IMG/VR virus record: IMGVR_UViG_2684622582_000007
Reading direction: 5' to 3' (one strand)
Length of the DNA: 26,595 nt
DNA from: a virus
Lineage: Duplodnaviria > Heunggongvirae > Uroviricota > Caudoviricetes
The notes under the pieces were generated by a model. The model was not told where the DNA came from, ran no database searches, and worked only from the letters and a program-made list of their open reading frames with translations. The position numbers and the translations under genes are program-made. Shown here piece by piece: positions 1 through 24,605 of the stretch (its first letter is position 1; the number at the start of each line of letters is the position of its first letter).

Positions 1-234
1 ATGAAATCAAAAGACACCCTAAAGTGGTTCCCTGCGCAACTTCCTGAAGTAAGAATTATCCTAGGGGATGCTGTAGTGGAAGTAGCAAAACAGGGAAGAC
101 CTATCAATACCAGAACATTGCTTGATTACATTGAAGGAAACATAAAGAAAAAGTCATGGCTGGATAACAAAGAATTATTACAAACAGCGATATCAGTTCT
201 TAAAGACAACAAAAATTTAAATGGTAAAATGTAA
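1..234 (+). CDS. Hypothetical small protein (77 aa), function unknown
   Basis: ORF begins with ATG at window position 1 and ends with TAA at 232-234. It is AT-rich (about 40% GC), unlike the lambda-like late region. No motif recognised. It may be complete or the in-frame tail of a longer gene starting upstream of the window. Confidence 0.4.
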   Translation: MKSKDTLKWFPAQLPEVRIILGDAVVEVAKQGRPINTRTLLDYIEGNIKKKSWLDNKELLQTAISVLKDNKNLNGKM

Positions 235-552: not shown

Positions 553-1143
553 ATGTCTCGAATTTATGCTTACTGTCGGGTATCAACTCTGGAACAGACA
601 ACCAAAAATCAACGTCGGGAAATCGAAAGTGCAGGTTTTAACATCAAATCTCAGCAAATAATTGAAGAACAAATTAGCGGCTCAGCAGCAACCAGTGAGC
701 GTCCTGGTTTTAACCAGTTGCTTGATCGACTGAAAAGAGGTGATGAATTGATTGTCACAAAACTGGATCGCCTCGGTTGTAATCCAATGGATATCAGTAA
801 AACGGTGGAACAACTGACCAAAGCAGGTATCAAAGTGCATTGCTTAGCATTGGGGGGCGTTGACCTGACCAGTCCACCTGGAAAAATGATGATGCAAGTA
901 ATTTCAGCAGTCGCTGAATTTGAGCGAGATCTTTTACTTGAGCGTACTCATTCAGGGATATTAAAAGCACGGGGCGCAGGAAAGCGATTTGGTCGCCCAC
1001 CTGTGTTAAATGATGAACAAATACAGAGGGTACTAGAGCAAATTAAGTCAGGTATAAATATAAGTGACATTGCCCAAGAATTCAAAACCTCGCGGCAAAC
1101 CATTTTAAGAGCTAAAGCAAAAAATCAGACACCTGATATATAA
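553..1143 (+). CDS. Serine site-specific recombinase, resolvase/invertase family (Pin/Gin/Hin-like)
   Basis: 196 aa. N-terminal YCRVSTLEQ with the catalytic serine in the conserved Y-x-R-V-S-T-x-x-Q context, KLDRLGCN motif, and a C-terminal helix-turn-helix ([17 protein letters not shown]). Position next to tail-fibre genes is typical for Pin-type invertases, but the sequence diverges from Gin/Pin. Confidence 0.85.
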
Positions 1144-1240
1144 AAATAATCTCGGTGTGAGATTCCTTACGTTTTCCAAGCCCCCCTTCCTAGCCTTAAA
1201 TGGAAAGATACCTCTAATTATAGAATTTATATATCTTACC

Positions 1241-1501
1241 CTACGGAAGGGCTGGCCATTCAATATCCGGTGCAGTTGATGTATCAACACGGTTCAGCAA
1301 CACCCGATATTTATTCCATGCCTCCAGCAACGATCTTTCTTCCTCCGTTGCGATTTCCAGATCTACAGCATCCTGCAGTGGCGCAATATACTCACTGAAT
1401 TCCTGGATGTAGAACTGTGTGGTGACGGTCTTCCAGCCATTCGGCTCCTGCTGTATCGAAGCATACCAGGCTATTTCAATATCGCTATGCTGCGGCAGCA
1501 T
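1241..1501 (-). pseudogene. Tail fibre assembly protein (tfa) 3' remnant
   Basis: The C-terminal 50 aa ([48 protein letters not shown]) are near-identical to the C-terminus of the full Tfa at 2281-2865. The N-terminal 36 aa are unrelated to Tfa and the ORF is only 86 aa. Confidence 0.55.
1250..1397. repeat. Direct repeat copy 1 (about 148 bp, about 90% identical to 2300-2447), derived from the 3' end of a tfa gene
   Basis: Aligned by eye: caatatccggtgcagttgatgtatcaacacggttcagcaacacccgata... at 1261 versus caatatcaggtgcagttgatgtatcaacacggttcagcaacacccgata... at 2311. Similarity stops near 1397 and 2447. Confidence 0.8.
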
Positions 1502-1557
1502 TTAACCCCTTGTAATTCATCGCCATAATTGATTTAATTCACAAATAAAACTATAAC

Positions 1558-2226
1558 ATGGTGAAATTAATGAAAAAAAACACAGATGATGGGGCTAAAA
1601 TTTACACACCACTTACCCTAAAGCTTTATGACTGGTGGGTTTTGGGAGTATCAAATCGGCTTGCATGGGGATGTCCTACAAAGGAACACCTTCTTCCACA
1701 CTTTCTGGAACATTTAGGTAACAACCATCTGGATATTGGTGTTGGAACTGGGTTTTACCTTACTCACGTACCTGAGAGTAGTCTGATATCTTTAATGGAT
1801 TTGAACGAAGCTAGCCTGAACGCGGCATCTACAAGGGCTGGGGAATCAAAAATTAAACATAAAATTAACCATGATGTTTTTGAACCTTATCCCGCGGCGT
1901 TACATGGTCAATTTGATTCCATTTCCATGTTTTACCTTCTTCACTGTCTGCCTGGAAATATATCTACAAAAAGCTGTGTAATACGCAATGCGGCGCAGGC
2001 CTTAACTGACGATGGAACTCTATACGGAGCCACAATTCTTGGCGATGGAGTTGTGCACAATAGCTTCGGCCAAAAACTGATGCGCATTTACAATCAGAAA
2101 GGCATCTTTTCAAACACAAAAGATTCCGAAGAAGGCTTAACACATATACTCTCAGAGCATTTCGAGAATGTTAAAACCAAGGTTCAAGGTACTGTAGTAA
2201 TGTTTTCTGCTTCAGGGAAAAAATAG
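1558..2226 (+). CDS. Class I SAM-dependent methyltransferase (orphan; substrate unknown; not a recognisable DNA methyltransferase)
   Basis: 222 aa with Rossmann motif I LDIGVGTGFY. No DPPY/NPPY or PC-ENV DNA-methyltransferase motifs seen. AT-rich, on the opposite strand to the flanking tail-fibre genes. The start may be the ATG at 1570 (MKKNTDD), which follows a GGTGA Shine-Dalgarno-like sequence. Confidence 0.8.
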   Translation: MVKLMKKNTDDGAKIYTPLTLKLYDWWVLGVSNRLAWGCPTKEHLLPHFLEHLGNNHLDIGVGTGFYLTHVPESSLISLMDLNEASLNAASTRAGESKIKHKINHDVFEPYPAALHGQFDSISMFYLLHCLPGNISTKSCVIRNAAQALTDDGTLYGATILGDGVVHNSFGQKLMRIYNQKGIFSNTKDSEEGLTHILSEHFENVKTKVQGTVVMFSASGKK

Positions 2227-2233
2227 CATCCAA

Positions 2234-2266
2234 CCGCAGCACGTTCTTGCTTAAGACGTGCTGCGG
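2234..2266. terminator. Stem-loop (11-bp perfect stem CCGCAGCACGT / ACGTGCTGCGG, 11-nt loop) between the convergent methyltransferase and tfa genes; possible bidirectional terminator or RNA-stabilising hairpin
   Basis: Inverted repeat read from sequence between the methyltransferase stop (2226) and tfa stop (2281). No U-tract on either strand, so intrinsic-terminator status is uncertain. Confidence 0.35.
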
Positions 2267-2280
2267 CATAATCCCAATGA

Positions 2281-2865
2281 TTACTCCCTGACAGGATTTG
2301 CAGGCCACTCAATATCAGGTGCAGTTGATGTATCAACACGGTTCAGCAACACCCGATACTTTTTCCAGGCTTCCAGCAATGAGGTTTCTTCCTCCGTTGC
2401 GATTTCCAGATCTACAGCATCCTGAAGTGGCGCAATATGCTCACTGGCTACCTGCATCAGGCTGTTTTTTGTTTCTTCCGCCTCCCGGATCCGGAACAGT
2501 TTTTCTGCTTCTGCATCTTTCACCCAGGCTGTGCCGTTCCACTTCTGAAACTCCCCTTCCGGCGATAACCAGGTAACATTTTCCGGTAACGGACCGAGTT
2601 CAGAAATAAATAACTCGTCCCCTGACGCTACGTCATAAACCGTTTTACCCCGATGGTCTTCAACGAGATGCCACGATGCCTCATCACTGTTGAAAACAGC
2701 CACAAAGCCAGCAGGAATATCTGGTGGTGCAATATCGGTACTGTTTGCTGGCAGACCTGTATGAGGCGGAATATATGCGTCACCTTCACCAATAAATTCA
2801 TTAGTTCCGGCCAGCAGATTATAAATTTTTATGGTCCGTGCTTGTTCACTCATTCTGAATGCCAT
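2281..2865 (-). CDS. tfa: Tail fibre assembly protein Tfa
   Basis: 194 aa, [39 protein letters not shown]..., recognised as lambda-type Tfa. Lies directly downstream of stf. Confidence 0.93.
2300..2447. repeat. Direct repeat copy 2 (inside the 3' end of the intact tfa gene)
   Basis: See copy 1 at 1250-1397. Confidence 0.8.
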
Positions 2866-5693
2866 TATGCAAGCCTCACAATATAGTTAAATGCGATGTT
2901 TTTGACGGTGTTTTCCGCGTTACCAGCAGCGTTAACGGTGATGGTGTGTCCATGTGAGCCAATCGCAACGGAGTGCGTATGAGCACCAATACCGACAGTA
3001 TGTGCGTGTGCACCTGCGCTTGCAGCAGTGCCGGACAGTGAGTGGGTATGCGCGCCAGCAGAGTTCGTATTCGCCATCGTGCCAATGCCCAGACCAACCG
3101 TCCCTTGTACCTGGTATGAGTTACTTCCGACAGCTGTAGAACCATACTGATAGGTGTCTTTAAAAGTGCTTGTATTAAACCTGCGACCATCAACGTGCGA
3201 GTGTGCTCCGGCCGAGCTTGTAGAGCCGCTCAGACTGTGCGTATGCGCCCCGGTGTTATTCGTGGATTTAGTGCCGTAATCAAACGACGATGTGGTTTTC
3301 GTACCCAAATCCGTACTGGATGCGCTGGCGCTGTGGGTGTGCGATTTAATGCCGTCCTGTTCCTGAGACAATACGGCACGACCACTGGCGGGCTTGCCCT
3401 TAATCGTCCAGCCACGCATATCAGGGATCACGCCTGACGGATAAGCGACTGCAAGTTTCGGGTAGGCAGATTTGTCAAAAGTCTGCCCCTGCATCAGGGC
3501 ATAACCAGACGGAACGGTATCCGATGGCCACGGGATTGGTGCGCCAGGCGGATAAAACTGCTCTGATGGCGTATAGAGTGAATAAACTGTACCGTCCGTT
3601 AACCCTTCCGGCTTATTAGCAGAATATGCTGGTGACGTATGAATCGTTACGCTGGCATTACTGGTATAATCCCATTGAATATTTACACCAGTCGCATAAT
3701 TTCCGATTGCAACGTAAATATCGTAAGTATCACCAGATGTATTGACCCAGGCAAAATTTGTAAACCCTGCCGATGTGCGCTGCCATAAAGCACCAGTAAT
3801 CCCCTTCGGATTACCATTACCTGCACGCAAAACAAGTTCAGATATACCTGCCTGTTGAGGTGATCCGACGTTATATCCAGCCCCACCAATCAACGTAATT
3901 GAAACAACAGAACTCGCCTGCGGCATGGTTACCGTTGCTAATTTGAACCAACCAGCACCACCGCTGAATGACATAGTTGTTGAGTTAAGCGTACCAATAT
4001 CTTTCGGTGTCAGTGTTATATCCGCTGAAAGCGCCTTACCATTCACCTTACGGGCAGAAGGTACCCGACCATTCGCATTGTCATTAGCTGCTTTCACTGC
4101 TTTCGATGTCGCAGCAAGCGTTTCAGATGCGCTGTTGGTTGCACTACTGAGCTGGACAATTCCTTTTTGTGCTGTCGTAGCGTCCTGAGCGGTATATTTC
4201 CCGTTAGCCAGGTCATACGCGGCCTTAACGGCTTTTGGCGTTGCCGCCTGTGACTCGGAAGTGCTGTTAGTCGCGCTGCTTAGCTGGACTATCCCCTTTT
4301 TCGTCGTGCTCGCATCCTCAAGCGCCACAGCGGATGCAATATCCTCTGCCCGTTTTGCTGCTGTCTCGGCGCGCGTTGCTGCGGATTCTGCCGTACTCTT
4401 GCTCTGTGCTGCCGCCGTCGCACTGCCAGCAGCCTCTGTTGCCTTCGTGGATGCCGTCGTGGCGCTGCCCTTCGCTGCTGACGCTTGTCTGGTCGCCTCA
4501 TCTTTTGAAGCAGACGCCGATGAGGCCGATGACGCCGCCGAACTGGCGGACGATGCGGCAGCCGTTTTTGAGGATTCTGCGCTGGTTTCCGACGCTTTCG
4601 CGTTCGTTTCGGATGTCTTCGCTGCGGAAGCTGACCTCGCTGCTGCGCTGGCCTGTTCAGTGGCTTCGCCAGCCTTCGTTGTGGCTGTTGAAGCGGATGA
4701 TGCGGCGCTTTCTGCCGATTTTCCGGCGGCGATGGCACTGGCTGAGGCCTGCCCGGCACTTGTTGACGCGGCACTGGCAGACGACGCAGCCGCTGTTTTT
4801 GAGCCTGCCGCAGCTGAGGCGCTCTGTCCCGCTGCCGTCTCAGAAGACCTGGCGTTCGTCTCGGACGTTTTTGCCGCCTTCGCGGAATTTGCTGCCGCCG
4901 TTGCCGAGGAAGCTGCGCTACTGGCGCTCGAGGATGCGTTCGTTTCTGATGATTTTGCCGCCTCTTTTGAAGCCGACGCATCCCGGGCTGAGGTGGCAGC
5001 TTCTGACGCTTTCGTAGTCGCGGTGGATGCAGAAGTGGCTGCTGATTGTTGTGACGCTGCAGCATTCGTTTCTGACGTTTTCGCGGCACTGGCACTGGTA
5101 GCTGCCGCGCTTTTTGAGGACTCTGCAGCGGCAGCACTTTTTTCCGCTTCAGTGGCCTTTGTTGATGCCGTTCCTGCGCTGGAAGACGCTGACTGAGCCG
5201 ACGAAGCGGCCTGTCCGGCTGACGTGCTGGCTGCGCGTGCTGAGCCTGCAGCATCAGTCGCATGGGTTGCCGCCTCACGGGCAGATGTACCGGCATCGCC
5301 GGCTGACTTCTTCGCGGCTGCCGTGTTCTGTGCCACCGCGGACGCGTTACGCGCCACCTCTTCCACCATCAGTTCAAAACGGCGCAGAGCCTCCGGACGG
5401 GCATCATCCTCCGTCATGGCACCGAGAAAATCATTCAGCGTACCGGGTCGGGAATCTTCATACACGGTGATGGTCCCGGCATGTGACGGCGGGAATCCTT
5501 CCACCAACAGAATAACGCTGTACTGACCGTACTCAACGTCCATGCTGTAACGCCCGGCTTCATCCGGATTTTCTGAGGCCAGCGTGTTCACCACCACCGC
5601 GGTGCTGTTACGTTTTGCTTTCAGCTGGATTGTGCAGTTCTGTACCGGTTTTCCTGTGCCGTCTTTCAGTACACCTGAAATCTTTACTGCCAT
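2865..5693 (-). CDS. stf: Side tail fibre protein Stf
   Basis: N-terminus [31 protein letters not shown]... matches lambda Stf. Long Ala/Ser/Thr-rich low-complexity region, then a C-terminal distal domain with His-rich GAHxHS repeats. The ATG at 5693 is preferred over the upstream GTG at 5699 and keeps the 64-nt lom-stf spacing seen in lambda. Confidence 0.9.
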
Positions 5694-5703
5694 ATTCACC
5701 CCA

Positions 5704-5757: not shown

Positions 5758-6357
5758 TCAGAACTTATAACCGACACCCACGATGAAACCGTCAGTGCGC
5801 CAGTCGCCACTGCCGGAGCCTTCATAAGCAATATCAATGGCCACGGATTCGGTCGGGTTAAACTGCACGCCAGCTCCCCACGCCAGAGACGTGTTGCTGT
5901 GGCGACCGTCATCACTTCCGGTCAGCACGTCGTGCGTTTTCCCCTTGTTGTCAGTTACGCGGAGATAATCCCCGGAGAAAGTCGACACACGGCTGTAAGC
6001 CATACCCGCCATCGCATACGCGCTGAACCATTCATTCACGCGCACAGACGGCCCCACCATCACGCTGAACCAGCGGTTACGCACGGAATCTTCATGCCAG
6101 CGGGTATCGCTGTAACGGGTAAGCTGGCGATTCTTGTCTCCTGCATAGCTGAATGACGTCACCAGCCCCAGTGTGTCCGTAAACTCATAACGGTATTTCA
6201 CGTTAATCCCGTTAAGATCATCGCTGCCGGGAACGTTCGTCGAGGCATGAAGATACCCCGCGCTCAGCGTGGACTGATGTTCAGATGCCCATGCAGGCGC
6301 ACCGGATACGGCCAGACAAATGGCTGCGGACAAAATGGCGGCATAAAGTTTACGCAT
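5758..6357 (-). CDS. lom: Outer membrane protein Lom (Ail/Lom family)
   Basis: 199 aa with signal peptide. C-terminal half (...SAYAMAG...[26 protein letters not shown]) matches lambda Lom; the N-terminal half differs. GAGAGG Shine-Dalgarno upstream of the ATG at 6357. Confidence 0.88.

Positions 6358-20924: not shown

Positions 20925-24605
<3,681 letters not shown>

Follow-up and report, generated by a model that had tools for sequence, protein, structure and literature searches.

The window analysed here, a 26,595-nucleotide stretch of Caudoviricetes DNA (IMG/VR record IMGVR_UViG_2684622582_000007), contains at positions 1241 to 2865 the ybcY-tfaX module known from lambdoid prophages. It is read here as a "moron", cargo for lysogenic conversion that sits where the tail-fibre operon ends, and its product, YbcY, is most likely a small-molecule methyltransferase; to this reading as a whole we give roughly 60%. 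An earlier interpretation made from the letters alone (the sequence-only reading) had described an orphan S-adenosylmethionine (SAM)-dependent methyltransferase gene between tfa and a tfa remnant. The gene is neither orphan nor novel. It is ybcY, annotated in the same tfa/tfa-remnant context in the cryptic prophage DLP12 of Escherichia coli K-12. The parts of the module are as follows.

1241-1501, minus strand: TfaX, an 86-codon open reading frame (ORF), chimeric by sequence comparison, with codons 1-36 from a 79-aa phage gene (phrog_3893 family) and the remainder from a tfa 3' end
1251-1408, no strand: direct repeat copy A, derived from the tfa 3' end (repeat search and allele alignment)
about 1409-2238, no strand: putative imported cassette, comprising a 5' fragment of the 79-aa gene, then the divergent promoter region, then ybcY (match to Citrobacter freundii)
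1529-1557, plus strand: sigma-70 promoter of ybcY, TTGATT-17-TATAAC (exact hexamers and spacing)
1558-2226, plus strand: ybcY, class I SAM-dependent methyltransferase (ORF of 222 aa; Pfam Methyltransf_12)
2234-2266, no strand: strong hairpin between the convergent ybcY and tfa (RNA folding)
2281-2865, minus strand: intact tail-fibre assembly gene tfa, 194 aa (Caudo_TAP, E 3e-45)
2300-2457, no strand: direct repeat copy B, the 3' end of the intact tfa (repeat search)

Window positions 1255-2719 match the tfaX-ybcY-tfaD region of DLP12 at 97.3% nucleotide identity over 1465 bp, and the gene order in MG1655 is tfaD (b0561), ybcY (b0562, a pseudogene), tfaX (b0563), appY and ompT. Identity and conserved synteny both mark the methyltransferase as the orthologue of K-12 YbcY, the name that phage records also give it. 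Of 5426 complete E. coli genomes, 3838 (71%) contain the ybcY region (1502-2280), at 4947 places in total with a median of one and a maximum of four per genome, almost all of them chromosomal. The full tfa-ybcY-tfaX layout, counted as at least 80% coverage of window 1100-2900, is found in 1493 of these genomes, the O104:H4 outbreak lineage included, and the module is also carried by the isolated temperate lambdoid phages PhiR26_1, PhiR30_1, PhiR29_1/2, 2G7b and ev243. PHROGs assigns both proteins to families of unknown function, phrog_2132 and phrog_2341, the latter matched by TfaX over its full length. The sequence-only reading had asked whether canonical lambdoid elements hold the same gene in this context with a housekeeping role: the context does recur, in DLP12 and in isolated phages, but no role is known for it there. 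The layout is already known and ordinary, and ybcY is a very common, annotated and uncharacterised prophage cargo gene. The new points are small, namely the chimeric origin of TfaX, the Citrobacter-type source cassette and the rarity of the joint that links tfaX to the invertase gene pin in this window.

That the 222-aa product is a class I SAM-dependent methyltransferase with the motif LDIGVGTG, encoded between tfa and a second ORF that ends in tfa sequence, is borne out by the ORFs and by Pfam, with a correction to its start that is discussed below. Methyltransf_12 scores 39.2 bits against a cut-off of 30, and Methyltransf_23, _25 and _11 are above their cut-offs as well. Across 32 homologues 59 alignment columns are invariant; the glycine-rich GxGxG loop of motif I (residues 58-65) and D81, the acidic residue that closes strand 2, are invariant in the same set. 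The protein has the seven-stranded alpha/beta methyltransferase fold, its AlphaFold model (predicted local distance difference test score 90.6) is a single catalytic domain with an N-terminal helical lid, and its best profile matches in the PDB are juvenile-hormone acid methyltransferase (JHAMT) and UbiG.

TfaX and the flanking repeats

The ORF at 1241-1501 had been taken for a 3' remnant of tfa, a description that fits its tfa 3' end but not its first 36 codons. Pfam Caudo_TAP covers only residues 31-86 (E 1.6e-24), the first 36 residues are not tfa-like, residues 3-37 match phrog_3893, and in tblastn the N-terminus matches 79-aa genes of Klebsiella and Citrobacter. As judged from these comparisons, the "tfa remnant" is a chimera of 36 codons of an unrelated 79-aa gene and a tfa 3' end. 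In K-12, PhiR68_2 and 2G7b, tfaX is truncated or frameshifted. The 79-aa gene itself is intact in Klebsiella phage Kp4882-3 (L018 3504-3743), and its product has no Pfam match. A 130-aa ORF follows it there and, judged by eye, may be UmuD-like.

A likely type of source for the non-tfa sequence is provided by Citrobacter freundii contigs (L025-L027), in which an intact 79-aa gene is divergent from a ybcY homologue of 90% protein identity. This cassette has 91.3% DNA identity to window 1415-2238, shares the intergenic promoter region and contains no tfa sequence; because its homology covers 1415-2238, the block from about 1409 to 2238, with a GC content of 41.1%, appears to be imported. At the left junction the reading frame of the 79-aa gene runs on into tfa codons through a 6-bp microhomology that reads TGAGCA in both parents and TGAGTA now. 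At the right junction the Citrobacter homology stops at about 2238, within the left arm of the hairpin.

It is possible to account for these junctions with a single event. A two-gene cassette, the 79-aa gene divergent from ybcY, would have sat downstream of a tfa gene, so that one parent was a phage with the order stf-tfa-hairpin-ybcY-79aa while a second parent donated another copy of tfa. One illegitimate join at the 6-bp microhomology, leading from codon 36 of the 79-aa gene into the last ~50 codons of the second tfa, would have generated the TfaX chimera and, incidentally, flanking direct repeats of about 150 bp. This is the simplest history that we infer from sequence comparison, and since one join yields both the chimera and the repeats, insertion into a pre-existing duplication is not needed. 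The repeats are better accounted for by this one join than by capture within duplicated tfa ends, as the sequence-only reading had proposed; that the repeat has served as a crossover point is demonstrated by the allele comparison below. The TfaX "gene" may best be seen as a fusion scar, which offers portable homology for cargo swapping at the tail-fibre end.

The repeats themselves, which the sequence-only reading had described as tfa 3' sequence, are real: positions 1251-1408 and 2300-2457 align over 158 nt with 90% identity, and blastn recovers 147 nt at 91.8% (E 8.7e-58), a similarity far beyond chance. Both copies also match Rfam RF02111, "IS009", a computationally predicted E. coli small RNA (copy B at full length, 2324-2522 on the minus strand, 229.5 bits; copy A at 1275-1478 on the minus strand, 115.4 bits, the gathering score being 117). 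We considered such an RNA here, and the family seems simply to describe the conserved 3' coding end of tfa genes.

An alignment of six tfaX alleles with four tfa 3' ends indicates how the repeat has been used. The proximal, tfaX-specific part is common to all tfaX alleles, while the last ~60 bp and the flank differ. Downstream of tfaX lie appY in K-12 and PhiR68_2; an alpha/beta hydrolase gene and ompT in 2G7b, PhiR26_1 and O103:H2; an intS-side hypothetical gene in strain Rb-50; a copy of the tfa downstream flank with a DUF4376 remnant in O104:H4; and pin-ydfK in this window. With at least five different downstream flanks among the tfaX alleles, the tfa 3' repeat is a place where crossovers have recurred: homologous exchange within this conserved stretch has since linked the module to many different downstream cargo regions.

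In the window, the first ~15 bp of copy A (about 1251-1265) carry the single-nucleotide polymorphisms of the pin-linked tfa of PhiR42_1 and PhiR68_2, and from about 1266 on the copy is of the tfaX type, 98.8% identical to strain Rb-50. Since the distal part of copy A has the pin-linked tfa polymorphisms, the ydfK-pin left flank was gained by such a crossover. O103:H2 12009 and other genomes share this flank at 99.4% identity; there the order is tfaX-ybcY-ynaM-ydfK-pin-tfa-stf. The pin-tfaX-ybcY junction of the window occurs in none of the 5426 complete E. coli genomes: its parts are common, the recombinant is rare.

An exchange between copies A and B would remove ybcY, and methyltransferase-free layouts do exist in relatives. 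Phage PhiR42_1 has the order ydfK/ynaE-pin-tfa-stf without a methyltransferase gene, exactly the structure expected from such an exchange; in line with the sequence-only reading, related phages exist both with and without the gene.

Expression and selection of ybcY

The sequence at 1529-1557, TTGATT-17-TATAAC, has hexamers identical to those of the ybcY promoter mapped in K-12 by SELEX (systematic evolution of ligands by exponential enrichment). In K-12 this is a constitutive RpoD promoter that binds RNA polymerase in vitro, as determined by genomic SELEX (PMC3946193), and the ybcY/tfaX spacer also holds a divergent tfaX promoter and an H-NS site that overlaps the ybcY promoter (PMC3946193). 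Because the published -10 hexamer abuts the ATG at 1558, and because M5 corresponds to the first residue of all 31 aligned homologues, the true start of ybcY is probably the ATG at 1570, which would give a protein of 218 aa and a very short leader.

Downstream of ybcY, the hairpin at 2234-2266 has a folding energy of -23.9 kcal/mol on the plus strand and -28.5 kcal/mol on the minus strand (z -5.9 and -5.0). A scan for consensus terminators did not call it, as it has no canonical T-run, but we predict it to be a probable bidirectional terminator for ybcY and tfa. It appears, then, that ybcY forms a transcription unit of its own, read from a sigma-70 promoter, with a transcript that converges on the hairpin shared with tfa. 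The GC content of ybcY is 40.5% compared with 54.5% for the window, which fits both H-NS binding and a foreign origin. These properties are those of a moron: a promoter of its own (with the hexamers of the one mapped in K-12) and a predicted terminator, an atypical composition, and presence in some homologous phages and absence from others, among them PhiR42_1 and lambda. The sequence-only reading is supported in seeing a moron on the opposite strand, independently transcribed and flanked by duplicated tfa 3' sequence, and it was right that lambda has no such cargo after tfa; at this position lambda has tfa only.

The coding sequence looks functional. The ratio of non-synonymous to synonymous substitution rates (dN/dS) is 0.19 against the Citrobacter cassette (54 substitutions) and 0.10-0.17 against homologues from Salmonella, Citrobacter braakii and Enterobacter. 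Among the sequence clusters, that of the intact 222-aa form dominates (6589 member sequences), and ybcY is intact in all phage and genome alleles inspected except that of K-12. We would therefore regard YbcY as an active, selectively maintained SAM-dependent methyltransferase.

Several observations weigh against this picture of a maintained cargo gene with an assignable type of substrate. The K-12 ybcY is a pseudogene. A 2-nt deletion (L016 8820-8800, window 1570-1575) has cost it the G of the codon-5 ATG and one A at the head of an A8 run that is present in all other ybcY alleles inspected. The K-12 gene is, moreover, probably silenced by H-NS, and from the pseudogene and the probable silencing it follows that ybcY is dispensable, at least in the laboratory. 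PhiR42_1 and the other methyltransferase-free relatives could equally be parental or ancestral forms, so that deletion between the repeats is only a prediction, and phage Ayreon lost ybcY by a different, internal deletion that was not mediated by the repeats and kept both flanks. Finally, searches of the PDB, Pfam, NCBIfam, PHROGs and literature turned up no characterised relative, and with it no substrate or phenotype for the family. What is left at the Ayreon locus (L017 3286-3599) is the hairpin together with stubs of the tfa 3' end, the ybcY 3' end and the tfaX 5' end.

Some of these points could be taken to mean that ybcY is a decaying, functionless passenger, retained only through its location between tfa sequences that recombine readily, in prophage remnants that are widespread. 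The K-12 deletion and the loss in Ayreon would be expected on such a view, as would the truncated variants P0029 (161 aa, 445 members) and P0100 (130 aa) and the H-NS site at the promoter. However, a passenger should not have a dN/dS of 0.1-0.19, nor should the full-length cluster dominate and every inspected allele but one be intact, and we consider this explanation quite unlikely.

Candidate functions of YbcY

The closest structural neighbours of YbcY, namely MM_2633, PsmD, BelI, DhpI, Coq5, UbiG and JHAMT, are small-molecule class I methyltransferases (Pfam Methyltransf_12/11/25). Identity to the solved structures is only 12-18%, and the invariant motifs of the YbcY family, YDWWVL..N...W.C, YLLHCLPG and YNxKGIFSN, have no characterised counterpart. 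Salmonella, Enterobacter, Yersinia and Erwinia carry homologues of 56-65% identity that stand alone on the chromosome, away from phage genes and often beside genes for hydrolases, oxidoreductases, MerR, DJ-1/PfpI or DoxX proteins; their neighbourhoods contain no conserved partner gene. The homologues at 68-90% identity in Citrobacter and Salmonella are found in prophage or island cargo regions next to DinI, sodC, SopA and PerC. One of them, the Citrobacter braakii homologue of 68% identity (L030/L031), is located beside sodC, a transthyretin-like gene, DinI and a SopA-family effector gene, in what looks like a Gifsy-like cargo island adjoining torS; this case suggests that prophages have taken up relatives of ybcY as cargo more than once. 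More distant members of the family occur in Pseudomonas, Janthinobacterium, Lysobacter, Acidobacteria and many ascomycetes, under names no more specific than "methyltransferase" or "UbiE-like", and the fusions seen in distant homologues, one to a cytochrome P450 and one to RCC1, are too few to name a substrate. Literature searched for ybcY, b0562 and tfaX reports no function, only expression data, the SELEX work and mentions of the context; in one report a ybcY mutant had no effect on Hha toxicity.

Most plausibly, what YbcY methylates in the lysogen is neither DNA nor RNA nor a phage protein but a small molecule, either a metabolite or a xenobiotic. It is tempting to go further and to speculate that this gene, spread by lambdoid phages to ~70% of E. 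coli genomes, could confer a lysogenic-conversion phenotype when H-NS silencing is relieved. It might, for example, methylate and so detoxify an antibiotic or another small molecule met in the gut or the environment or, less likely, modify a macromolecule that affects phage infection, but to an idea this specific we give little weight.

The position next to tfa could also be read as a sign that YbcY methylates a macromolecule, either a host or phage protein such as a tail-fibre component or a tRNA or rRNA, and so alters host physiology or phage assembly. We find this unlikely. The linkage to tfa is explained by the recombination history, the orthologues elsewhere are stand-alone chromosomal genes unrelated to phage tails, and ybcY is oriented against the late operon under its own sigma-70 promoter, so that it is not co-expressed with the tail genes. 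In addition, the modelled protein is a bare catalytic domain of 218 aa to which no RNA- or protein-binding extension is added.

DNA can be set aside as a substrate. The motif scan agrees with the sequence-only reading that DNA-methyltransferase motifs are absent: YbcY has no motif IV of the (D/N/S)PP(Y/F/W/H) or PC(Q/H) type, as an N6-adenine, N4-cytosine or C5 enzyme would have, nor any such match in Pfam or NCBIfam, and a single domain of this size leaves no room for target recognition.

Prophage cargo positions are often home to defence genes. A role of YbcY in anti-phage defence or counter-defence, for instance through modification of DNA or of a signalling nucleotide or through superinfection exclusion, had been raised by the sequence-only reading and would suit this position. 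The sole match in PADLOC-DB v2, with none among the neighbours, is to mad2 (E 6.8e-4, 16.6 bits), but it is confined to the generic methyltransferase core at a very low score. There is no target-recognition domain and no partner nuclease or effector gene, the neighbours differ in every context, and the chromosomal orthologues reside in neighbourhoods of a metabolic or detoxification type. The suggestion is thus unsupported and a defence role is most improbable.

Gene context and comparison with known systems

The following genes flank the module in the window.

1-234, plus strand: ydfK/ynaE-family cold-shock gene (ORF; 99.4% identical DNA is named "cold shock protein YdfK" in RefSeq)
553-1143, plus strand: Pin-type serine invertase (Pfam Resolvase and HTH_7; the PhiR42_1 copy is annotated as a PinQ/PinR-type serine recombinase)
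2865-5699, minus strand: side tail-fibre gene stf, 944 codons (ORF; homologous loci have a side tail fibre or prophage tail fibre N-terminal domain protein)
5758-6357, minus strand: 199-codon ORF, lom (Ail/Lom is annotated at this position in homologous loci)

The intact tfa, at 194 aa, has the length of lambda orf-194, and the lambda tfa matches it at 92.6-92.9%. The rest of the window is a run of large minus-strand ORFs that resemble the lambda late genes J to Nu1 in size and order; the comparison with homologous loci extends as far as J, which is annotated there. Within stf, positions 4200-5200 on the minus strand encode a long Ala/Ser-rich stretch of degenerate repeats whose periods are multiples of 21 nt, and the long ORFs on the opposite strand or in other frames over it are probably artefacts of composition. 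A 45-codon ORF at 2171-2308 on the minus strand takes in the 3' end of ybcY, the hairpin and the stop codon of tfa. Although it is named "hypothetical protein" or even "nucleocapsid protein" by RefSeq in many genomes, it is probably a spurious gene call.

The ydfK-pin block is found in 2682 complete E. coli genomes. Since a Pin-type invertase lies 100 bp from the tfa remnant, the segment might be thought a present or past invertible tail-fibre switch of the kind known as Mu G, P1 C or e14 P, in which the remnant would serve as alternative tfa. This is effectively refuted by the orientation of the two tfa copies, which are direct and not inverted repeats. No inverted crossover sites flank an alternative stf C-terminus and tfa, and there is no alternative stf C-terminus. 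No gix-like site was detected in the region, and no convincing inverted repeats (the best arms are 70-78% complementary); the only gix/hix-like match is at 24267, far away and at chance level. The rarity of the pin-tfaX junction among complete genomes speaks against such a switch as well. With no invertible tail-fibre segment nearby, the enzyme is an orphan invertase like PinQ and PinR.

Taken as a whole, the layout is textbook lambdoid mosaicism. ybcY is among the most widespread E. coli prophage cargo genes annotated without a function, and it is apparently under purifying selection, so that a substrate screen would fill a modest gap in annotation.

The closest known system is the tfaD-ybcY-tfaX region of DLP12, which has the same genes, order, orientations, promoter hexamers and flanking tfa repeats. 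It differs in that ybcY is intact in the window whereas the K-12 gene has its deletion at codon 5, in that tfa is full length in the window, with stf, lom and J of what seems to be a complete late region after it, and in that pin-ydfK rather than appY-ompT lies downstream of tfaX. The phages PhiR26_1, PhiR30_1, 2G7b and ev243 and the O104:H4 and O103:H2 prophages share a ybcY of 98-99% identity, tfa-derived flanks and a location at the tail-fibre end of the genome. Their flanks differ, some having ompT and the alpha/beta hydrolase gene beyond tfaX; the tfa N-terminus differs in 2G7b, and ynaM-ydfK-pin stands between ybcY and tfa in O103:H2 and PhiR68_2. With the better-known lambdoid morons, such as lom and bor of lambda or sodC and ompT elsewhere, ybcY has in common a promoter of its own, a hairpin, an atypical GC content, a site between the late genes and the attachment end, and presence or absence among similar phages. 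Unlike those genes it encodes a cytoplasmic enzyme rather than an envelope or virulence protein, and the homology at its flank comes from a fused gene remnant.

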